A stretch of 64,000 nucleotides of DNA from Patescibacteria group bacterium (GTDB lineage: Bacteria; Patescibacteriota; Doudnabacteria; UBA920; VMFF01): the NCBI GenBank assembly GCA_038065615.1, contig JBBTQQ010000007.1, positions 12,473 through 76,472 of the forward strand, written 5' to 3'. Under the pieces are notes generated by a model, which searched no databases, was not told the origin of the DNA, and saw nothing but the letters and a program-made list of their open reading frames with translations. Position numbers and translations under genes: made by a program. This document shows, piece by piece, positions 4,845-60,650 of the stretch. Every line of letters begins with the position of its first letter. Position 1 is the first letter of the stretch.

Positions 4845-4873
4845 TTGACATTTCTTTGGCGAAAGATTATAGT
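4845..4873 (+). promoter_or_regulatory. sigma70-like promoter (TTGACA, 17-nt spacer, TATAGT)
   Basis: TTGACA at about 4845-4850 and TATAGT at about 4868-4873. Confidence 0.55.
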
Positions 4874-4879
4874 TTGGAC

Positions 4880-4957
4880 ATGCAAAATCAACCTCAAAAT
4901 TTCAGCTATTACTTCAGCTACTGTAAACAGGGTTGGCATTTGCAATTGCTTAAGTAA
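4880..4957 (+). CDS. Putative attenuator leader peptide MQNQPQNFSYYFSYCKQGWHLQLLK (Phe/Tyr-rich)
   Basis: A 25-codon ORF begins about 7 nt after the -10 element. It has a run of 5 Phe/Tyr codons in 7 positions (F-S-Y-Y-F-S-Y). It is followed by a terminator hairpin, then the tyrA-pheA fusion gene. Confidence 0.45.
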   Translation: MQNQPQNFSYYFSYCKQGWHLQLLK

Positions 4958-4980
4958 GTAGATTTAGAAAGTAATTCAGC

Positions 4981-5012
4981 AACCCTTCGCTTCGTGCCAA
5001 GGGTTGTTTTTT
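4981..5012 (+). terminator. Candidate attenuator terminator upstream of tyrA-pheA
   Basis: AACCCTT-CGCTTCGTGCC-AAGGGTT hairpin followed by GTTTTTTT, 13 nt before the RBS/ATG of the downstream gene. Confidence 0.55.
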
Positions 5013-5024
5013 TAAAGGAAACAT

Positions 5025-6311
5025 ATGGAAACAGTCAGTATTATCGGTCATGGTAGGTTCGGTAAAGTTCTTGAAAAGATTTTAAGGACTGATTTTAACG
5101 TGCTTATTCATGATAGGTATTCGCCTAAATCAGTTACTGCTGAAAAAGCATGGCAAGCAAAAATAATTTTCATGGCAGTTCCGATTTCTAAATTTGAGGA
5201 GTCCCTTAAAGGCAATCTTAAATACTTAAGAACTGGACAAACTATAATTGATACCCTTTCTGTTAAAAGTCATCCAGACAAGATTTTGAAAAAATATTTG
5301 AAAGGAAAAGGAATAAACGTAATATTATCGCATCCGCTTTTCGGTCCGGACAGCTTTAGTGCTAAATCAAAAGGATTGTCCATTGTGATGTGGCCAAGTC
5401 TGGGATCAAAAAAAGAATACAAATTTTGGAAGGATTTTTTCCAGGTAAAAGGTTTTACGGTGGTAGAGCTAAGCCCCAAAAATCATGACCGTCTTGCAGC
5501 ATATTCTCAGGGATTAACTCACTTTGTAGGCAGGTTGCTGGAAGCTATTCATTTTAAGCCAACCGCAATTGACACATTGGGGGCAAAAAAACTTCATGAA
5601 ATAATGCAGCAAACTTGTAATGATTCCTGGAAACTTTTCCAGGATCTTCAAACCTACAATCCATACACCAAGCAAATGCGCCTAGATTTAGGAGTTGCGT
5701 ACAAAAAGATTTACGGACAGTTGTTACCTTCCAATCTAGGACTTCCCATATACGGAATACAAGGTGGCAAAGGTAGTTTTAGTGAACAAGCGCTAACAAG
5801 TTACACTCAAGCTGAAAACATCAAACACTTTAAAATCAAATACCTTTTCACCTCTGAAAAGGTATTGAATGAGCTAAATAAAGGGGGAATAGATTTTGGA
5901 GTATTCGCAATAGCGAATGGCACAGGAGGTCTGGTTGAGGAGTCAATGCAGGCAATAGCAAAATATAGCTTTGAGGTTGAAAACAATATTCCAATTTTTG
6001 TCAGGCATTGCTTAATGCGACGCAAAGATGCCAAAGGATCAATAAAAACAATTATGGCTCACGAACAGGTTTTCATGCAATGTAAAAATACTCTACGCAG
6101 AAAATATCCGAGAACAAAATTAGCAACCGGAGTTGGCGCAATGATTGATACGGCAAAAGTAGCTGAAACTTTAAGATCAGGCAAACTAAGCAAAAATGTC
6201 GCCATTCTAGGCCCCAAGATTTTAGCTGAAATGTATGACTTTGAGATATTAGACCAAGACCTCCAAGATAACAAAAAAAATACTACTACATTCTTAATAG
6301 TACGACGATGA
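5025..6311 (+). CDS. Bifunctional prephenate dehydrogenase (TyrA-like N-terminus) / prephenate dehydratase (PheA-like C-terminus) fusion, no ACT domain
   Basis: The N-terminus has a GHGRFG NAD-binding loop, SHPLFGP and NHDRLAAYSQGLTHF TyrA motifs. The C-terminal half has a PDT domain (IYGIQGGKGSFSEQA ... NTTTFLIV, matching the TRF motif). The protein ends right after the PDT domain. Confidence 0.75.
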   Translation: METVSIIGHGRFGKVLEKILRTDFNVLIHDRYSPKSVTAEKAWQAKIIFMAVPISKFEESLKGNLKYLRTGQTIIDTLSVKSHPDKILKKYLKGKGINVILSHPLFGPDSFSAKSKGLSIVMWPSLGSKKEYKFWKDFFQVKGFTVVELSPKNHDRLAAYSQGLTHFVGRLLEAIHFKPTAIDTLGAKKLHEIMQQTCNDSWKLFQDLQTYNPYTKQMRLDLGVAYKKIYGQLLPSNLGLPIYGIQGGKGSFSEQALTSYTQAENIKHFKIKYLFTSEKVLNELNKGGIDFGVFAIANGTGGLVEESMQAIAKYSFEVENNIPIFVRHCLMRRKDAKGSIKTIMAHEQVFMQCKNTLRRKYPRTKLATGVGAMIDTAKVAETLRSGKLSKNVAILGPKILAEMYDFEILDQDLQDNKKNTTTFLIVRR

Positions 6312-6390
6312 AAAAGCTCTATACACAATCTTTTTACTTTTATTTTATGCCTGGCTGAAGCTAGGGATTTTGAGTTGAAAAAATCGACTC

Positions 6391-6424
6391 AAGCTTCCTG
6401 GTTTTGGCCAGGAAGCTTTTTGGT
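6391..6424 (+). terminator. Rho-independent terminator after tyrA-pheA
   Basis: Perfect 11-bp stem AAGCTTCCTGG-TTTTGG-CCAGGAAGCTT followed by TTTTGG. Confidence 0.75.
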
Positions 6425-6473
6425 TCTTTAACAACCTTACCATGTCACCTTGTCACCCTTTTGGAGAAACACC

Positions 6474-7334
6474 ATGACACGAAAGATGCGTTACGAGAAA
6501 GTAATCCCTGTTATGAAGCACCAAAATTTGGTTAAGATCGGACATATGCACCTTGGTGGATGCGATTTTAAAACGGAGAAGTGCAGACCGTTTGTGATCG
6601 CCGGTCCATGCTCAGTAGAAGGGCTGGAGACGATGGAACAAACCGCTCGTTCTGTGCAGAGTTCTGGGGCAACAGCCCTGCGTGGTGGCGCTTTCAAACC
6701 TAGAACATCTCCGTATGAATTCCGGGGAATGCAGGAGGAAGGGCTAAAGATTCTGCGCGAGGTCAGTAATCAAACCAACATGCCGGTAGTGACTGAAGCA
6801 ATGGATACCAGACATGTTGATCTGGTTGCTTCCTATGCTGACGCCATCCAAATCGGCGCGCGAAACATGCAAAACTTCGCATTGCTTGAAGCATCTGGGG
6901 CAACAGGGAAACCTGTCCTGCTGAAGCGGGGGCCTTCGGCGACAATCAAGGAATTCTTGCTCGCCGCAGAATATATCATGAACGCAGGATCCCACGACCA
7001 GGTAATTCTGTGCGAGCGCGGGTTACGCAGCTTTGATAGCTACACCAGGAACCTTCTCGATATATCGGCTGTACCCGTGTTGCAATCAATGACTGATTTG
7101 CCTGTGATCGTTGATCCGAGCCATGCTGCCGGACGCAGTGATATTGTTCCCGCTTTATGCTATGCGGCTATTGCAGCAGGTGCGAACGGGCTAATTGTGG
7201 AAGTGCATCCCAACCCCAGAAAAGCGTTAACTGACGGTGATCAATCGCTCAACCTGTTTCAGTTTAGATACATGATGTACAAATTGGAATTGATTTCGGC
7301 CTGTACGCGGAGCAATGAAGGGGGTTACTCATGA
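6474..7334 (+). CDS. aroF: 3-deoxy-7-phosphoheptulonate (DAHP) synthase, class I-beta-like
   Basis: GPCSVEG ... [16 protein letters not shown] core. ATG at 6474 has a GGAGA RBS; the track gives a TTG start at 6450. Local GC is about 50% against a ~35% background. Confidence 0.8.
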
Positions 7335-7855
7335 ACGACTCTGGACATCGGCTTCTAAGTCTGCGAAGCAAAATTAAGAAAATTGATCTGCAAGTTCTTA
7401 AGCTAATTGCCCAAAGGATGGCGGTTGCAGAACAGATCGGGAGAACGAAGGCAGAATTTAGAATTCCGATTGAGAACGCTGAACAAGAAAGGGCCGTAAT
7501 GAACACCATATTGGTTGCTGCGGAGCAGGCTGCTCTCCCAGCAGACGATGTGACAGAAATCTTTTTGCTAATAATCTCTCTCAGCAAGAAGATGCAGGGT
7601 GCAATCATGAAGAAAAAGGAGGTCAAATCCGGCGTCGTCAAAGAAGAGATAATCCATGGCTTGGGTTATTGGACCAGACACGGATTTACGTCGGTGCCAG
7701 ACGAGAAATTCACCGAAGCGGAGATTATTGCCGCAAATGGGGGTAGCAGAGTTGGCGCGGGATACACAAATCTCGCCGGTGAAAACTGTGAGCTTCCAAG
7801 CTATTACCGTAGATGGAGCAAGTGGTGTAAAACAACAACTGAACCGGAGGAATAA
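7331..7855 (+). CDS. Chorismate mutase (AroQ class) with an uncharacterised ~75-aa C-terminal extension
   Basis: The N-terminal ~95 aa ([33 protein letters not shown]...) matches the AroQ helical chorismate mutase domain. ATGA start/stop overlap with DAHP synthase. Confidence 0.7.
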
Positions 7856-7928
7856 TTAGGCCAACAAAATCATGGCAGATACACGGTAAGGGTTCCAATT
7901 CACTGCAAAGTGGATTGAGAACCCCCTG

Positions 7929-7961
7929 CCCTTAACACATCAATTGTTGGTGTCTTGAGGA
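7929..7961 (+). repeat. 33-bp repeat copy A (CCCTTAACACATCAATTGTTGGTGTCTTGAGGA)
   Basis: Matches 41090-41122 at 30 of 33 positions. Both copies sit at the right edge of a GC-rich segment. Confidence 0.7.
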
Positions 7962-8110
7962 CAGACCATCTAAATTTCGTTCCCAAGTAAACTGTCTAAA
8001 AGCTTTTTATAACATTATTACCAATGGTGTTTGATTCGTTGACGCCAAATTGACAAGACGAATCAAACATAATATTCTGATTTTGGTAAGCTGATATTCT
8101 ACCTGTCAGG

Positions 8111-22052: not shown

Positions 22053-22778
22053 TTAGTCAGGGCTGGTTTTGGTGTGAGGTGGGAAGTGGAGACCACAGAC
22101 CGAGCAATACCCGGTAGCGCGAGCTTCTACTGCGGTCTTGTGGACGTCAGGGCAACGATGCTCCTCTTCTGCAGCCGCGCTGTGACCATAGAATACCTGG
22201 AACAGTTCATCGCAGAAGTCCGGGTTCCTGATGCCACAGCTGGCGCAGTACTTACCGTAACGCACCTGCTGATCTCCGCATTTCTTGCATGGAATTGTAA
22301 ACCCTTCTTCGTAGATGAGTCCTAAGGCATCGTCCATGTCTACTGTCTTAGTTGGACAGACGGTTTCGATGGAAGTAAGGATCTCTGCGATCAACTCTTC
22401 ACGTAGCCTTCTTGCTTGTTTTTCTGAGACCCTCAGGGTTTTCTTGATCTCTTGGATGTGGTTCTCCTCCATCCAGATTAGGTACACGATCAGATAGCCA
22501 GTGTTGCTAATCCTCTTTGCGAGAGGACTGCAAGCTGCTGTGAGTTCTTCTTCTGTTGCGACTTCGAGATCTGAAGAAACATCGTCCTCTTCGTCGTCCA
22601 GATCATCTGCTTGATCAGCAGTCATTCCAGGCTGCCAGGTTGATACCGTGTCTCCATATGGTCCTTGTGGGGCGTGTACTTCGCCCCTCCAGGATTCGTC
22701 GTCAGGCAGCTCGAAGGAGCTGTCTTCTTCCCATTGTGTCATGGCTCCTCCGGTTCGTGTTTTCTCGTATGACGGCAT
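22053..22778 (-). CDS. Hypothetical acidic/Zn-ribbon protein in a GC-rich island
   Basis: 241 aa with an acidic N-terminus (DDLDDEEDDVSSD), a helical middle (KQARRLREELIAEI) and C-terminal paired CxxC motifs (CKKCGD..CASCG; CSVCG). GC is about 52% against ~35% neighbours. Confidence 0.55.
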   Translation of the reverse strand: MPSYEKTRTGGAMTQWEEDSSFELPDDESWRGEVHAPQGPYGDTVSTWQPGMTADQADDLDDEEDDVSSDLEVATEEELTAACSPLAKRISNTGYLIVYLIWMEENHIQEIKKTLRVSEKQARRLREELIAEILTSIETVCPTKTVDMDDALGLIYEEGFTIPCKKCGDQQVRYGKYCASCGIRNPDFCDELFQVFYGHSAAAEEEHRCPDVHKTAVEARATGYCSVCGLHFPPHTKTSPD

Positions 22779-25578: not shown

Positions 25579-26268
25579 TTACTCTTTAACTTTCCAATTA
25601 TCGCATTTTTTTAGTGCTTTAGTAAAGACCCTTTTCTTTCGTGTAAGATACAGCTTTGTACGGGGTGGATACATATATTTGTATATTTTTAAAGCGTCAT
25701 TCGTCGAATATGATAGCTGGTAGCTGCGTCTGCTGTTATATATCTTTGTTTGTCTTAGTGCCAGTTTGTTCTTTAGCTTTAAACACAAGGTTTCCAAAAA
25801 TTTGTGGCTACCACTTGTAAATATTATTCTTAATCGTTTTTGTTTTTCTACATATACGCAGCCATCGCCATCAAAGTACCCTCTTACAAAATCAGATAGA
25901 TATCGATCCTCAATTGTAGGGAACCTCATCGTCAGTGATTTCCTTGGATATATTCCTAGTTTTGTAACAGAATCGTATAATTCTTTGTCGCCTATCCTCA
26001 ATCTGTATTTTATTTTATGTTTTTTTGATTCCGGCGGGATGATTTCTATTTTATGTTCAGCGCGCAACTCTTTTTTTAGCCGACTAATTAATTCATAGTC
26101 GGTGCTAATAGCTTTCAAGTAATGAGCTCTGAATGATTGCCAGTATTCTACGCTGCCATCAGCAAATAGATAGCCTAAAGTATACGCCATTCTCTTTGAC
26201 CACTTATTAAAATATTTTTCGTTTACTTTGTATTTAATCCCCATATTTTTGTATTGTAAGTTTAACAA
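25579..26268 (-). CDS. LAGLIDADG homing endonuclease, double-motif, free-standing
   Basis: Two LAGLIDADG motifs, LGYLFADGS and VRGYFDGDGCV, with the second ~100 aa after the first. Confidence 0.8.
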   Translation of the reverse strand: MLNLQYKNMGIKYKVNEKYFNKWSKRMAYTLGYLFADGSVEYWQSFRAHYLKAISTDYELISRLKKELRAEHKIEIIPPESKKHKIKYRLRIGDKELYDSVTKLGIYPRKSLTMRFPTIEDRYLSDFVRGYFDGDGCVYVEKQKRLRIIFTSGSHKFLETLCLKLKNKLALRQTKIYNSRRSYQLSYSTNDALKIYKYMYPPRTKLYLTRKKRVFTKALKKCDNWKVKE

Positions 26269-29215: not shown

Positions 29216-29508
29216 TGCCTCGGTAGCTCAGTGGTAGAGCGCAGCCCTAAAAATCTTTGGGGCCATGAGTAGTAATATTCATTGAGAAAAATTGGGTGAA
29301 TTCGGGGAAAACCGTTTATTAAGTTAAGCGACAATCCCGAGCCAAGCCAAGAAGGGTTTAAGTTTCTTGGAAGGTGTAGAGACTAGCAAGTGAGTCCCAA
29401 CAATAATCTTGCACTAGCGCCCAACTCCTCTTTTAGAGGATGATGAGATAGTCCAAATAGCCTTGGAAGAGGCTGGCGTCGTCAGTTCGATTCTGACCCG
29501 AGGCACCA
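29216..29508 (+). tRNA. tRNA-Phe (anticodon GAA) interrupted by a group I intron in the anticodon loop
   Basis: The 5' exon GCCTCGG/TA/GCTCAGTGGTAGAGC/G/CAGCC/CU ends at 29247. The 3' exon GAAGA/GGCTG/GCGTC/GTCAG-TTCGATT-CTGAC/CCGAGGC/A/CCA starts at 29466. Together they fold into a canonical cloverleaf. The Phe assignment depends on splice-site placement. Confidence 0.7.
29248..29465 (+). ncRNA. Group I self-splicing intron (~218 nt) in the tRNA anticodon loop
   Basis: P1 is exon ..GCCCU paired with intron GGGGC (U.G at the splice site). P10 is intron UCUUU paired with 3' exon GAAGA. The intron ends in G. Core segments CAATCCCGAGCCAAGCCAAG and GGAAGGTGTAGAGACTAGC resemble the cyanobacterial tRNA-Leu group I intron core, as recalled from memory. 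Confidence 0.7.
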
Positions 29509-29557: not shown

Positions 29558-30253
29558 ATGAGAAAAGAAAAAGAGAAGGCTTTTAAATTGCGATTGGCTG
29601 GTAACAGCTACGCAGAAATAACGAAAAAGTTAAATGTGCCAAAAAGTACACTATCTTTTTGGTTCTCTGAAATGCCATTGTCTGAAAAAGCCAGGAAGCG
29701 AATAAGTTTAAGAGTGCAAGCAGGTTCTTTTAAGGGTTTGCTGAAAAGAAACCAATTACAAACACATTTAGCGAGACAGAGGGCAAAGGAAACAAGATCA
29801 GTTTCAAAATTGGATGTTGGAACATTAAGTAAACGAGAGCTTTTTATCTTGGGGGTGGGTTTGTATTGGGCCGAGGGCTACAAACGTCAAATATACAAAG
29901 ATGGTAAGGCAAAAACCTACCACCCTGTAAGTTTAAGTAATTCTGATCCAAACCTTGTTAAAATCTTTTTAAGATTTTTGCGAGAAGTATGTGGTGCATC
30001 TTCAGAGAAGATAACAGCACATTTAAGGATATATGAACATCAGAATGAGAAGGAGCTCTTAAAATTCTGGAGCCAGGTGACTAAAATTGCGCCAAGCAGG
30101 TTTTCTAAATTTTATTATGGCGTTAGCAAATCAAGTCAACACAAAAGACCTTTTAATATCTTGCCGTACGGAACAATTCAGATTAGAATAAATGATACTA
30201 AACTTTACCATCAAATTATGGGATGGATTGAAGGTTTAGAAGAGCAAAAATAA
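29558..30253 (+). CDS. HTH + single-motif LAGLIDADG-like putative homing endonuclease
   Basis: N-terminal HTH (NSYAEITKKLNVPKSTLSFW). A LAGLIDADG-like motif (FILGVGLYWAEGYK, compare GLWIGDG of PI-SceI) lies ~100 aa in. It starts 50 nt after the intron-containing tRNA. Confidence 0.5.
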   Translation: MRKEKEKAFKLRLAGNSYAEITKKLNVPKSTLSFWFSEMPLSEKARKRISLRVQAGSFKGLLKRNQLQTHLARQRAKETRSVSKLDVGTLSKRELFILGVGLYWAEGYKRQIYKDGKAKTYHPVSLSNSDPNLVKIFLRFLREVCGASSEKITAHLRIYEHQNEKELLKFWSQVTKIAPSRFSKFYYGVSKSSQHKRPFNILPYGTIQIRINDTKLYHQIMGWIEGLEEQK

Positions 30254-40682: not shown

Positions 40683-40773
40683 GGAAGAGTGGCCGAGTGG
40701 TTGAAGGCGCAGCTCTCGAAAAGCTGTATGGGTCAAAAGCTCATCGTGGGTTCGAATCCCACCTCTTCCGCCA
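40683..40773 (+). tRNA. tRNA-Ser (anticodon CGA)
   Basis: GGAAGAG acceptor, anticodon loop CTCGAAA and a long variable arm. CCA is encoded. Confidence 0.75.
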
Positions 40774-41089
40774 AAGATAATCGCCCTAGAGGCGGTTTTT
40801 TGTTATATTATCAGCAAGAGGTCATGTTTCACATCTTTCATCGAGGTAGATCATGTGCTGGAGAGATGATGTTCCCATGTCGCGGGTGTGCATACGTTGT
40901 GGCCAGCAATACTACGGCGACCTCGGGCACCGAGGATGTCCAGGCTGGCGGAAGAAAGATGAGCCAGCAAGCTCATCAATCGTGAGCCCCACGGTAAATA
41001 CTCCGGGAGCAGAACAACCAAAATAAGGAGGGTAGCTGAGCTATTTACTCAAGAACCCGGATCCGCTCTCAATCAACTGAGAGCGCCTT

Positions 41090-41122
41090 CCCTTAACACG
41101 TCACTTGTTGGTGTTTTGAGGA
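41090..41122 (+). repeat. 33-bp repeat copy B (CCCTTAACACGTCACTTGTTGGTGTTTTGAGGA)
   Basis: Second copy of the 7929-7961 element, at the right edge of a GC-rich noncoding segment following tRNA-Ser. Confidence 0.7.
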
Positions 41123-41180
41123 AAGAAAAATAGTTCTAACATCCTCCACGATGCCCCGCCAAGAAATCAATAATTAACAT

Positions 41181-52931: not shown

Positions 52932-53459
52932 ATGAACTCAAAAACAAAAATCAAGATTTTCGCGATATTAATGGGTATAAACCTTTTTAGCGTTGCTTCA
53001 GTTTTTGCTGCTAATCCAAAAGGATCTGGTTTAACTGTTTGCGGTAATTCAACCACAGCACAGATTCAAACATATCAGGATTGGTTAATACAGCATCCCA
53101 AAAACGGTGTTGAGTACCAAGCCAAACAGGATCAGTGGTACATAGATGAACAGAAACAGCGTGATTTAGCAGGAATGTGTGCACCTAAAGATATATACAA
53201 ACAGATTGGTAGGATTATAAACTTCCTGGTTGGTATATCTACTGCATACTTGGTTTTCAAACTTGCTTTTGCCGGATATATTATGGCAGTGTTTAAAGGT
53301 AATGAAACAGCCTTAACAGAAGCGAAAACTCAGATCGGTCATAGCATTACTGGAATGGTTTTAATTTTTGGAGCATACTTAACAGTAATGACTTTCTTTG
53401 GAGACATTTTTGGTGTAAACATACGTTTGCCATTAGGGATAAACTTGTTTGAAAAATAA
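52932..53459 (+). CDS. Pilin-like secreted two-helix protein, paralog 1 (VirB2/TrbC-like architecture)
   Basis: Signal peptide and a Cys-containing ectodomain. C-terminus is TM-KGNETALTEAKTQ-TM. Confidence 0.55.
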   Translation: MNSKTKIKIFAILMGINLFSVASVFAANPKGSGLTVCGNSTTAQIQTYQDWLIQHPKNGVEYQAKQDQWYIDEQKQRDLAGMCAPKDIYKQIGRIINFLVGISTAYLVFKLAFAGYIMAVFKGNETALTEAKTQIGHSITGMVLIFGAYLTVMTFFGDIFGVNIRLPLGINLFEK

Positions 53460-54237
53460 TATGATAAAAAACAAACTCGTTAAATTTTTAGCATCTATTG
53501 TATTAGCGTTCTCAGTTTTGTTAATGCCGATGCTTATTTTTGCAGCGCAGCCAAAAGTAGATTTTTCTACTGTGTTTTTTGATGGCACTCAACAAAAACC
53601 ATTAGTGGATGTGACTCCAGTAGTTGGTGATAGGATAATTTTTCATATAGCAATAAATAGCAATCCAGTATATTCATACTCAAATGTAAAAATTAAGATT
53701 AATGTAGACAAAACATATCTTGCGTTATCAAATACCTCTTTCGGAACAGGGTATACAGTTGGAGAAGTAAAAGCTAAAAGCACCCAAAGGCTTTTTGATC
53801 CAGAAGCAACTTTAATGAAGTTGGGCGATTTTAAAGTAACAGTAACAGTAACTGCAGACAATAGCGAAATAAATGCCCAAGAATATAATTTGAATTTCTC
53901 TGGTTCTTCTCGGCCAACTCAGCCTCTTAGGAGCAATGATGGAGGCTCATGTGTTATAGACGGATTTAATACATCAGATACTAAACTCTGCAACCCACTA
54001 CCTGACAAGAATCTAGGAGAGTTAGTATATAGGTTAATCAATTATATTTTGATAGGGATCTCATCAATGGCTATTGTTACGGTTGTTATAGCCGCGTTTA
54101 TAATCGTGAGTTCTCAAGGAAACGAAGAAGCCATTAAAGGGGCTAAAACATCCATTTCATGGGCTGTTGTGGGAATTGTTCTCGCTCTACTTGCGTATTC
54201 CATCGCATCAATTATTGAAAGTGCAGTAACAAGATAA
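53449..54237 (+). CDS. Pilin-like secreted two-helix protein, paralog 2
   Basis: Signal peptide and an ectodomain with Cys. C-terminus is TM-SSQGNEEAIKGAKTS-TM. Confidence 0.55.
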   Translation: MKNNMIKNKLVKFLASIVLAFSVLLMPMLIFAAQPKVDFSTVFFDGTQQKPLVDVTPVVGDRIIFHIAINSNPVYSYSNVKIKINVDKTYLALSNTSFGTGYTVGEVKAKSTQRLFDPEATLMKLGDFKVTVTVTADNSEINAQEYNLNFSGSSRPTQPLRSNDGGSCVIDGFNTSDTKLCNPLPDKNLGELVYRLINYILIGISSMAIVTVVIAAFIIVSSQGNEEAIKGAKTSISWAVVGIVLALLAYSIASIIESAVTR

Positions 54238-54239
54238 CT

Positions 54240-55097
54240 ATGAAAAAACTTTTTTCAATCATATTCTTCATCGCGATAGCAACAATGCCAATAATAGCTT
54301 TAGCATCTTTTGATCCACAATGTCCTGGAACAGAAAAGTCTTTGGGATTACTCGCCCCTCTTTTCCATACGAAAATTTGTAGCCTTAATGAACTGGCTTT
54401 ATTTGCAGTTAATTTTCTTTTAAGTATTATCGCTGTCATCTCAGTCCTCTTTGTTGTTATAGGAGGCTTTAGGTATGTTACTTCAAATGGAAATGAAGAA
54501 GCAGCCTCAAAAGGTAGAGCAACAATTACTAACGCCATAATTGGTTTAGTAATAGCAATGCTTTCATATACAATCATCCGGGTTTCGGTTAACACGTTTT
54601 CTGATAGCTTTAATCCAGGGGCTTCAAGTAAAACACAAAGTCAGCCTCAATCCCAATCTCAAACAACAAATCCAAATAATGCTGTTCAAGCATCATACTC
54701 TAACCTAGTTTCAGGGATTAATTTATCAGCAAAAGCAAATGGGGAATTAATAGTTAATGCAAGCGGATCAGTCAAAGATATCCAAGCAACCTGTCCTGAT
54801 TTTGTTGGAGCAACAGTGAAAGGATCGGCAATTGTTACACATTCTGTATTGGATGCGCATAACACAAAGCTTTTTGATATGAAACCTCAAATCGTAGATG
54901 ATATGTCTATAAACGGTGATTCTTTTTCAGCTGTTTTAAACTGGGCCGCTGGTTTCTCAGAACCATTGATACGTAATGGTGAGACTGACTCCTCAGTAGT
55001 TTTACACCTAGAATATGATCCAGGAGCAGGTTGTTCAAAGATAGAGATGGATAAAACATATAATTCAAGGGAATTAATCGGTTCAGGTGGTATTTAA
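54240..55097 (+). CDS. Pilin-like secreted two-helix protein, paralog 3
   Basis: Signal peptide, DPQCPGTEKS..KICSL Cys pair, central VIGGFRYVTSNGNEEAASKGRATITNAIIGLVIAML hairpin. This paralog has a ~170-aa extension after the second helix. Confidence 0.6.
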   Translation: MKKLFSIIFFIAIATMPIIALASFDPQCPGTEKSLGLLAPLFHTKICSLNELALFAVNFLLSIIAVISVLFVVIGGFRYVTSNGNEEAASKGRATITNAIIGLVIAMLSYTIIRVSVNTFSDSFNPGASSKTQSQPQSQSQTTNPNNAVQASYSNLVSGINLSAKANGELIVNASGSVKDIQATCPDFVGATVKGSAIVTHSVLDAHNTKLFDMKPQIVDDMSINGDSFSAVLNWAAGFSEPLIRNGETDSSVVLHLEYDPGAGCSKIEMDKTYNSRELIGSGGI

Positions 55098-59907: not shown

Positions 59908-59974
59908 GTTTGTATAAATGCGAAAGCCCCGGACTCTGACGAATGTCAAAGCCGGGGCAGACGCACACTTCTTC

Positions 59975-60475
59975 CTACAACCTGTGCCATTCCATGGTTC
60001 TCCTGGCTCCTTCTCTCCATGCTAGGAACCAGAAGCGCAGGAACGGAGCACCTGGGATGATAGCCAGCAGCATGTGGAAGTATCCAACCTCCACTTGTCC
60101 TTGTAGCACCTCTTGGAAGCCGATCGCGAAGATCGGGGCGGCGACAGCGACGGATACGAGGATTTGCCGCCAGTCGTCCTTCTTGCTCCAGAGGGCTTTC
60201 TTGATCGACTTGATTACCCACGGACCTGTTGCTCTGGCTAGCAGAAAGCAGACCAATCCAAGGAGCCCTATTGCTATCGTGACGAACGAGAGTCCATCGG
60301 TTTCGTTCGGAGGCTCACCATCCCAGATTGCGGCCTTGATCGTCAGTAGCACTACGATCAGACAGGACAGGAATGAAAGCATCCACATGCCGGTGGAGAC
60401 CAGGAAGAGCGGTAACACCACCACCATCCCAGTAATTCGCGCCATTGAAGCGAGGAGCCGACGAATCATGGTCAT
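59975..60475 (-). CDS. Hypothetical membrane protein in a GC-rich island
   Basis: 166 aa with 4-5 TM helices. Local GC is about 55% against ~35% flanks. A hairpin (GCCCCGG...CCGGGGC) lies downstream. Confidence 0.5.
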   Translation of the reverse strand: MTMIRRLLASMARITGMVVVLPLFLVSTGMWMLSFLSCLIVVLLTIKAAIWDGEPPNETDGLSFVTIAIGLLGLVCFLLARATGPWVIKSIKKALWSKKDDWRQILVSVAVAAPIFAIGFQEVLQGQVEVGYFHMLLAIIPGAPFLRFWFLAWREGARRTMEWHRL

Positions 60476-60650
60476 ATTAGTAAACCTCAGGTTGTGTAGT
60501 GTGCGATCCAGCGCGGGTGCTGATCGCTATGAAAGCAATCCAACACTATTTACAGCTGAACACAATACTTTAACATAAAAGGAGGACATTGTCAAGAAAG
60601 TGTTGTATGGTATAATTAAGTGGTAATTTGGGATACAGAAACACAAATAA

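Follow-up and report, generated by a model that had tools for sequence, protein, structure and literature searches.

Type I-beta DAHP synthase (DAHPS) fused to, or complexed with, an AroQ chorismate mutase (CM) is a known regulatory assembly, in which the mutase is linked C-terminally in Prevotella nigrescens and Porphyromonas gingivalis, N-terminally in Bacillus, Geobacillus and Listeria, and non-covalently in M. tuberculosis (PMC8408635, PMC7762937). Further along the pathway, TyrA fusions were surveyed in 2005, and that census includes the four-domain form of Archaeoglobus only, without a two-domain TyrA-PheA protein (PMC1173090). Genes for amino acid biosynthesis may lie behind leader-peptide attenuators such as pheL (RF01859), trpL and the actinobacterial leaders, built from a short open reading frame (ORF) with a run of regulatory codons, a four-segment pairing region and a terminator (PMC1262725; pheL survey PMC3082878). 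Here, we analyzed a 64-kb stretch from a Patescibacteria group bacterium of the Doudnabacteria lineage (contig JBBTQQ010000007.1, positions 12,473 to 76,472), called the window below, in which a GC-rich gene pair for a DAHPS and a CM fused to an orphan domain X (CM-X) follows an AT-rich tyrA-pheA fusion gene. We propose that this pair, together with a hairpin at its 3′ end, is probably a 1.5-kb foreign cassette that was acquired before two sibling species split and came to lie behind a native Phe/Tyr attenuator, at the place where the native aro operon started. The genes concerned are:

5025-6311, + strand: native tyrA-pheA fusion (prephenate/arogenate dehydrogenase and prephenate dehydratase; Pfam PDH_N and PDT), without an ACT domain
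6474-7334, + strand: DAHPS, type I-beta, core barrel only (PF00793, NCBIfam and PDB matches, motifs)
7331-7855, + strand: AroQ CM (residues ~5-95; PF01817) fused to the orphan domain X (residues ~103-174)

The initial annotation had described a GC-rich island with the DAHPS and CM genes in AT-rich surroundings, next to an AT-rich tyrA-pheA fusion, and had proposed a foreign origin for it. The compositional part of this description was borne out throughout. GC content is ~49% across 6450-7970 against a background of ~37% in the window; in 300-nt windows it reaches 0.49-0.53 over 6451-7350 and stays at 0.44-0.49 until ~7950, while the flanks lie at 0.33-0.40. The best fit with two change points placed the island at 6535-7930, with a GC of 0.493 inside and 0.375 and 0.373 outside (log-likelihood gain 32.8), and the GC of a segment of the fitted size exceeds by 5.3 standard deviations what is seen elsewhere in the window. 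The island is an outlier in codon usage as well: GC at third codon positions (GC3) is 0.52 in DAHPS and 0.49 in CM-X against a window mean of 0.32, and an index resembling the codon adaptation index, computed against 50 native genes, gave z = -6.5 for DAHPS and z = -5.1 for CM-X. The tyrA-pheA fusion, with a GC3 of 0.325 and a codon index of z = -1.6, is inside the native range. GC at the first and second codon positions (GC1 0.54, GC2 0.44) is also somewhat elevated in the island, as would be expected if both genes had been inherited vertically and owed their high GC to the amino acid make-up of the two proteins or to local selection. However, the island deviates most strongly in GC3 and in its choice of synonymous codons, and the GC excess lies largely at synonymous sites, so that protein composition does not explain it.

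The native counterparts of the two genes could be identified in relatives with the same TyrA-PheA fusion. Three of them, on long contigs (L013, L014 and L015), carry a complete ten-gene aro operon in the order class IV aminotransferase, DAHPS, aroB, aroA, aroK, aroE, aroD, aroC, CM and tyrA-pheA; the fusion is the last operon gene and is followed by a gene for a class Ib aminoacyl-tRNA synthetase. All genes of these operons are AT-rich, including DAHPS (GC 0.36-0.39) and CM (GC 0.24-0.34; 78-80 aa), which have a GC3 of 0.26-0.39. The native DAHPS is 21-28% identical to that of the window and barely matches the family models, and the native CM belongs to a different AroQ subtype, with W, A and E at the E52, S84 and Q88 positions. 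The initial annotation had named two findings that would speak against a foreign origin, namely DAHPS and CM genes that are normally GC-rich in the host clade, or their vertical descent; the relatives show neither, and the foreign origin therefore stands. One other patescibacterium does have a canonical type I-beta DAHPS, with 59% identity, which would suit vertical inheritance, but its gene has a GC of 0.40 and a GC3 of 0.33, and the relatives that have both the TyrA-PheA fusion and a leader peptide with the run FYFYF (described below) use a different, AT-rich DAHPS and CM. Vertical inheritance thus appears very improbable. TyrA-PheA itself is widespread in Patescibacteria: it has more than 120 full-length homologues (clusters P0123-P0242) at 50-55% identity, and all the named ones are Patescibacteria (Roizmanbacteria, Torokbacteria and others). 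In the window protein, the match to the PDT profile extends over positions 8-183 of 284.

The distribution of the island is narrow. We found it only in the window and in one sibling species, and among 5.8 billion proteins only that of the sibling is more than 66% identical to the DAHPS. The best non-sibling matches are 59-61% identical over aligned columns (up to 66% in local alignments), and those that carry a name are from Gemmatimonadota, Longimicrobiales and Actinobacteria, plus one Patescibacterium. Two close relatives without a match to the FXD domain belong to genomes with a GC of 65% and 67%; one of these proteins has 294 aa and lies in a DAHPS-PDT-CM(AroH) cluster, and the other has 343 aa. 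A scan of genome contigs, steered by query-specific peptides, returned mostly Selenomonadaceae at 48-57% identity, with the sibling as the only close match. The two best-scoring matches outside the sibling, P0003 (L089 8001-9293) and P0004, were set aside, as they carry internal tandem duplications of barrel segments, which inflate their scores, and look like misassemblies. Composition alone points to a donor in a moderately to highly GC-rich lineage. Taken together, the outlying GC, GC3 and codon usage, the narrow distribution and the different native genes of the relatives make the foreign origin of the DAHPS-CM pair well supported.

The window begins next to dnaA, and its proteins are annotated as those of a groundwater Patescibacteria metagenome-assembled genome. 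The initial annotation had raised the possibility of assembly chimerism, and a chimera or a binning contaminant could explain the abrupt change in composition, which is the only observation in its favor. In contrast, the two junctions of the island were recovered in identical form when at least six sequencing runs were assembled independently; the ORF of the second leader peptide overlaps the stop codon of the native gene and the foreign gene comes next; and the same architecture, obtained in other studies, is present in the sibling species. We therefore give an artifact practically no credence. Over 16.7 kb, the sibling locus is collinear with that of the window at 82-83% identity, and its island is GC-rich too (0.46-0.52), which indicates that the acquisition preceded the split of the two species.

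Comparison of the siblings also indicated how the genes have fared since. The sibling DAHPS (L008, 10001-10837) has decayed further toward AT (GC3 0.43 vs 0.52), with 38 vs 14 directional third-position GC/AT differences; the native flanking genes are roughly symmetric in such changes, except wzy (79:51) and TP_methylase (39:26), which lean in the opposite direction. TyrA-PheA, DAHPS and CM-X are all under purifying selection (dN/dS 0.11-0.15). Of the genes at the locus, DAHPS is conserved best, with an amino-acid identity of 0.92 and a dN/dS of 0.108, close to the 0.115 of tyrA-pheA, while CM-X, with 0.151 overall (0.13 in the CM part and 0.17 in the X part), is among the fastest-evolving genes in protein sequence. 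Among the 15 genes compared, DAHPS has the lowest dS, 0.40; yidD has 0.46, and the remaining flanking genes lie at 0.7-1.8. A recombination block was considered as the source of this low value and rejected, as no sharply bounded block was found.

The foreign origin was supported, but the initial annotation had overlooked two leader-peptide attenuators that place the foreign genes inside a native regulatory unit and not in a loose island. The elements of this unit are:

4845-4873, + strand: promoter-like site at the head of the unit, TTGACA-17-TATAGT (11 of 12 consensus positions, kept in the sibling)
4880-4957, + strand: ORF of leader peptide A, MQNQPQNFSYYFSYCKQGWHLQLLK and a stop codon, upstream of tyrA-pheA
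4980-5013, + strand: predicted terminator of attenuator A, a stem of CAACCCTT and AAGGGTTG followed by seven T (folding of full and truncated leaders)
6308-6358, + strand: ORF of leader peptide B, MKKLYTQSFYFYFMPG and a stop codon, before the foreign DAHPS, its ATG overlapping the tyrA-pheA stop
6358-6423, + strand: predicted attenuator B, forming either an antiterminator (6358-6404) or a hairpin (6371-6389) and an intrinsic terminator (6391-6418) with a T-run (terminator scan, folding)

Leader A carries the aromatic run FSYYFSY in the segment MQNQPQNFSYYFSYCK before tyrA-pheA. In the sibling the peptide reads MQNLPQNFGYYFSFCKQGWYLQLLK, so that the aromatic positions remain aromatic, and the region of attenuator A is 95% identical between the two species vs an average of ~83%. 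In silico folding gave four pairing segments, 1 (4888-4894), 2 (4928-4936), 3 (4980-4987) and 4 (4999-5006), in which the pairings 1:2 and 3:4 alternate with 2:3; segment 2 (CAGGGTTGG) can pair with the 5′ arm of the terminator and would then act as the antiterminator. Leader B, with FYFYF, is the sole ORF with a run of at least four F/Y among 592 short ATG ORFs of the window. Its peptide is identical in the sibling, both nucleotide differences being synonymous, and the 162-nt spacer between tyrA-pheA and DAHPS is 94% identical, above the coding flanks (~83%). The leader of attenuator B folds with z = -6.1, and the sibling changes fall in loops or are compatible with wobble pairing. When this leader was cut in silico before the 3′ arm of the terminator, it folded into the 6358-6404 hairpin, which sequesters the 5′ arm; when its 5′ part was blocked, imitating a ribosome that has reached the stop codon, the terminator formed.

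In each of the three relatives the native DAHPS is preceded by a consensus promoter, a homologous leader and a terminator, in that order. There, TTGACA-17-TATAAT occupies the equivalent position ahead of the leader peptide, and the peptides share the pattern MKN..TQKFYFYFDPP..:

L013, 1168-1300: promoter, FYFYF leader (MKNAVTQKFYFYFDPPCGGCNC) and terminator before the native DAHPS
L014, 1559-1800: the same elements (MKNTTAQNFYFYNDPPCGGSCNC) before the native DAHPS, with a second tandem leader MNIKLVLKFYFYFYPA (KFYFYFYPA), hence two tandem attenuators
L015, 1217-1350: the same elements (MKNVATQKFYFYFDPPCGGGCSC) before the native DAHPS

Attenuators A and B are thus native. Given that FYFYF leaders precede the native DAHPS in the three relatives, the foreign pair, whose first gene begins ~55 nt past native attenuator B, sits at the native DAHPS start and would be under native Phe/Tyr control. 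The attenuator regions of the window and of the relatives matched no Rfam family at gathering score; a match to Phe_leader (RF01859), with 23 bits vs a threshold of 55, was not used as evidence. The literature searched held no paper linking leader peptides with Patescibacteria, and this family of Phe/Tyr attenuators is apparently undescribed in that group.

The unit would accordingly run from the promoter through leader A and its terminator, tyrA-pheA, leader B and its terminator to the foreign DAHPS and the foreign CM-X. When charged Phe- or Tyr-tRNA is scarce, ribosomes would stall in the leaders and the antiterminators would form, allowing read-through first into tyrA-pheA and then into the two foreign genes; an ample supply of these tRNAs would instead let the terminators form. 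The folding models suggest that attenuation may well work in this way. Neither DAHPS nor TyrA-PheA has an allosteric domain, and control is for this reason probably mainly transcriptional.

The foreign DAHPS gave a clear match to PF00793 (E 1e-77; 260.7 bits, cut-off 25.5) and scored above the curated NCBIfam cut-offs of NF006421 (385 vs 335) and TIGR01361 (345.8 vs 267.75), while its scores with models of 3-deoxy-D-manno-octulosonate-8-phosphate synthase (KDO8PS), 77-120 bits, were far under the cut-offs of those models. The solved type I-beta enzymes 1VS1, 1RZM and 1ZCO matched it at E 1e-76 to 1e-81. In alignment with 1VS1 and 3PG8 the motifs CSVE, KPRTS, DPSH, EVH and LTDGDQSL (D.Q) are kept, so that the Cys, His, Glu and Asp metal ligands and the phosphate-binding motif KPRTS are all in place; we take the roles of these residues to be those of the T. 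maritima and P. furiosus enzymes. The protein has 286 aa, and its alignment to NF006421 begins at profile position 78 of 338. A regulatory module (FXD/ACT-like or CM) was not found on it, and PF18152 was unmatched, unlike in most of the top homologues. By its sequence, the enzyme is classed with the core-only, putatively unregulated members of type I-beta. Its nearest sequence neighbors are bacterial homologues that mostly carry the FXD domain, and this domain was therefore probably lost.

The CM domain matched PF01817 over residues 11-89 (E 1e-17; 64.6 bits, cut-off 27). Its residues R12, R29, K40, E53, S85 and Q89 align to R11, R28, K39, E52, S84 and Q88 of E. coli CM, and it shows no special similarity to DAHPS-linked CMs. 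The translational coupling reported in the initial annotation is present, with the DAHPS stop and the CM-X start overlapping as ATGA at 7331-7334; in the sibling the two genes lie 19 nt apart instead. Domain X (~70 aa) matched only the sibling and a stand-alone 72-aa protein (P0243; 60% identity) in a HMMER search of 1.84 billion representatives. P0243 is encoded on a 920-nt metagenome contig (L091), where a CM-like gene and X are separate and ATGA-coupled, indicating that the CM-X fusion is lineage-specific. No match to X was found in Pfam, PDB, PHROGs or plasmids, nor in a metagenome scan using the X-domain alignment, and an AlphaFold model of X was unusable (pLDDT 42). By analogy with the known DAHPS-CM assemblies, the two proteins may act together, and an interaction between DAHPS and CM, perhaps via X, is plausible.

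In the relatives the core shikimate genes lie between DAHPS and CM at the same locus. We searched for them in the window, and aroB, aroA, aroK, aroE, aroD and aroC were not found by tblastn with aro proteins of the candidate phyla radiation (CPR), nor was any core shikimate gene found in Pfam scans and gene tables covering most window ORFs. With the aro proteins of the relatives as queries, tblastn returned only tyrA-pheA and a weak DAHPS match at 27% identity, and the spacers of the locus hold no remnants of native aro genes. These searches bear out the absence of aroB through aroC that had been reported for the window, and the incompleteness of the pathway holds for these 64 kb. Such an arrangement could reflect a bracket of orphan enzymes: aroB through aroC would have been lost, CM and TyrA-PheA would convert scavenged chorismate or prephenate, and DAHPS would be kept for another reason or be on its way out. 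Patescibacteria genomes are generally reduced, and no core shikimate gene appeared in the flanks either (3.5 kb on the dnaA side and ~6 kb past the far end), both of which fit this idea. However, the DNA inspected amounts to only ~70 kb of the genome, no other gene of the locus is as conserved as DAHPS, which keeps all its catalytic motifs, and two predicted Phe/Tyr attenuators have been maintained. Such strong constraint on DAHPS, together with the upkeep of the attenuators, speaks for a pathway that still runs, and the remaining shikimate genes would then lie elsewhere in the genome. We thus regard the loss of aroB through aroC as possible but rather unlikely.

Several other observations weigh against a foreign cassette captured by a native attenuator, besides the absence of the six core genes that separate DAHPS and CM in the relatives, by which the pathway may be broken. 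The tyrA-pheA gene lies upstream of leader B here and at the operon end in the relatives, so a simple in-place swap is insufficient; its present place between leaders A and B indicates that at least one rearrangement accompanied the replacement. The minimum-energy fold of the naked full leader B is a long alternative hairpin and not the terminator, and the model of attenuator B consequently depends on ribosome occupancy. A neighbor-joining tree of the barrel columns did not settle the position of the DAHPS: two sister groups compete, with 35-40% bootstrap each, one being P0108, whose genome has 67% GC, and the other (35%) a trio to which P0018, an AT-rich patescibacterial DAHPS, belongs. The CM falls under every NCBIfam equivalog cut-off (best TIGR01791, 58.3 bits vs 66.95) and carries N and Q at the positions of E. 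coli D48 and R51, an N shared by 24 of 130 homologues and a Q shared by 16 of 130. Finally, no integrase, transposase, flanking direct repeat or tRNA was found at the island. The capture of a foreign pair by the native attenuator nevertheless remains, in our assessment, the probable history of the locus, and the pair appears to have functionally replaced the native DAHPS and CM.

The GC-rich DNA of the locus closes with two hairpins:

7890-7924, + strand: variable hairpin downstream of CM-X (sequence, consensus fold)
7925-7965, + strand: conserved hairpin of 40 nt where the GC-rich DNA ends on its 3′ side (repeated copies, paired stem)

GC returns to background within ~10-40 nt past the 40-nt hairpin. 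Its 33-nt core at 7929-7961 recurs at 41090-41122, where none is expected by chance, and a third, variant copy follows the CM and X gene pair on the AT-rich contig L091. In the alignment of the hairpin 96.9% of the cells are paired, with one compensatory pair, and the other changes are of the wobble type. A covariance model returned only the known copies in the window and 21 other loci, besides a weak match at L096 605-647 (- strand). This sole metagenome match is likely due to chance, being forced by the pattern; it coincides with the putative terminator of a T-box-type leader before a putative threonyl-tRNA synthetase gene on an AT-rich contig, and it was rejected. A scan of viral contigs for the hairpin gave no matches.

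These copies raise the question of whether the GC-rich islands are mobile gene cassettes with the 40-nt 3′ hairpin as their recombination site, similar to attC or to the ends of IS200/IS605 elements. In support of this, the same hairpin closes two unrelated GC-rich islands (7929-7961 and 41090-41122) and also follows a homologous CM and X pair on the unrelated contig L091, GC drops to background just past it, and its stem is kept through compensatory and wobble changes. However, no recombinase was found among the window ORFs scanned or in the gene tables, and no matching element, nor any 5′ element common to the islands, was found at their 5′ ends. By inspection, the hairpin arms (CCTTAAC...TTGAGG) do not match the R′′/R′ core sites of attC (RYYYAAC...GTTRRRY); the copies are dispersed rather than arrayed, and no IntI integrase was found among the scanned or listed window ORFs. 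Moreover, two other GC-rich islands lack the hairpin motif, the viral and metagenome scans gave no further true copies, and the data would also be explained if a repeat had come along from a single donor genome common to the copies. Searches for relatives of the island in phages and plasmids found none. We thus consider mobile cassettes unlikely, and the more specific proposal of an undescribed gene-shuttling system with the 40-nt 3′ hairpin as its signature slightly more doubtful still. If it were true, finished metabolic modules would reach the reduced genomes of Patescibacteria through such a system and be captured there by ancestral attenuators.

Other GC-rich islands are present in the window. 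The small island at 40790-41131 (GC up to 0.60) lies directly downstream of tRNA-Ser(CGA) (40683-40773), contains a Cys-rich ORF of ~57 aa and a hairpin, and closes with the same 40-nt hairpin as the DAHPS-CM island; a repeat of the tRNA-Ser 3′ end beside it was not significant (p ~0.13). A third island, at 22053-22778 (- strand; GC 0.52, GC3 0.54, codon z = -4.8), has no hairpin motif and encodes an acidic protein of 229-241 aa with CxxC pairs resembling zinc ribbons; this protein had no Pfam or NCBIfam match and a weak match to phrog_19315 (E 3e-6). The fourth island, at 59975-60475 (- strand; GC ~0.53, codon z = -9.6), encodes a 166-aa membrane-like protein without a family match. Public calls annotate an opposite-strand ORF here (59943-60578), whose GC2 of 0.55 suggests the wrong strand.

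Elsewhere in the window, a group I intron (29239-29475, + strand; Rfam, 78 bits) lies 28 nt past tRNA-Val(TAC), apparently not within a tRNA or rRNA gene, and is followed by a gene (29558-30253) whose 231-aa product weakly matches HTH_23. A free-standing ORF resembling LAGLIDADG homing endonucleases (25579-26268, - strand) adjoins tRNA-Cys and tRNA-Leu, and three successive genes with T4SS-pilin-like domains (PF18895) are found at 52932-55097 (+ strand).

The usual description of Patescibacteria is of organisms with a minimal metabolism that depend on partners. Against this background, the relatives of the window organism represent a clade with a full aromatic amino-acid operon under a conserved Phe/Tyr leader-peptide attenuator, an element absent from Rfam and from the literature searched. 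Horizontal transfer itself is ordinary; the capture of a foreign enzyme pair by an ancestral attenuator is the more interesting part. At this locus the entry and branch-point enzymes would have been swapped for foreign ones while the native RNA switch was kept, a case of a regulatory element outliving the genes that it controlled. The locus also raises the question of whether Phe and Tyr are made in-house or whether intermediates supplied by a host are processed, and domain X and the hairpin at the island end are leads for new biology.

Compared with the described systems, the foreign DAHPS is most like the P. furiosus (1ZCO) and A. pernix (1VS1) enzymes, which likewise consist of one (beta/alpha)8 barrel with a short hairpin at the N terminus and lack an FXD/ACT or CM domain. 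It differs from them in having a coupled CM gene, in sitting behind an attenuator and in being 59-61% identical to bacterial homologues that mostly have FXD. The pair has its genes in the order of the C-terminal fusions, DAHPS and then AroQ CM, and the stop codon of the first overlaps the start codon of the second; unlike the fusions, it encodes two polypeptides, of which the CM carries an orphan domain. The TyrA-PheA protein shares with the Archaeoglobus fulgidus TyrA-AroQ-PheA-ACT fusion (PMC1173090) the presence of TyrA and PheA domains on one polypeptide, and differs from it in being two-domain, without AroQ and ACT. Attenuators A and B have the short ORF, the run of regulatory codons, the four-segment pairing and the terminator of pheL, trpL and the actinobacterial leaders, and like pheL and trpL they lie upstream of cognate biosynthetic genes. 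In contrast to these, they mix Phe and Tyr codons (FYFYF, FSYYFSY) and occur in Patescibacteria, and attenuator B is internal to an operon, its start codon overlapping the stop codon of the upstream gene. Finally, the atypical GC and codon usage, the narrow distribution and the probable takeover of a native function by its foreign counterpart are those of xenologous displacement and of genomic islands; unlike typical genomic islands, the DAHPS-CM island spans 1.5 kb without mobility genes, repeats or a tRNA target, and it is placed under a native cis-element that was there before it.

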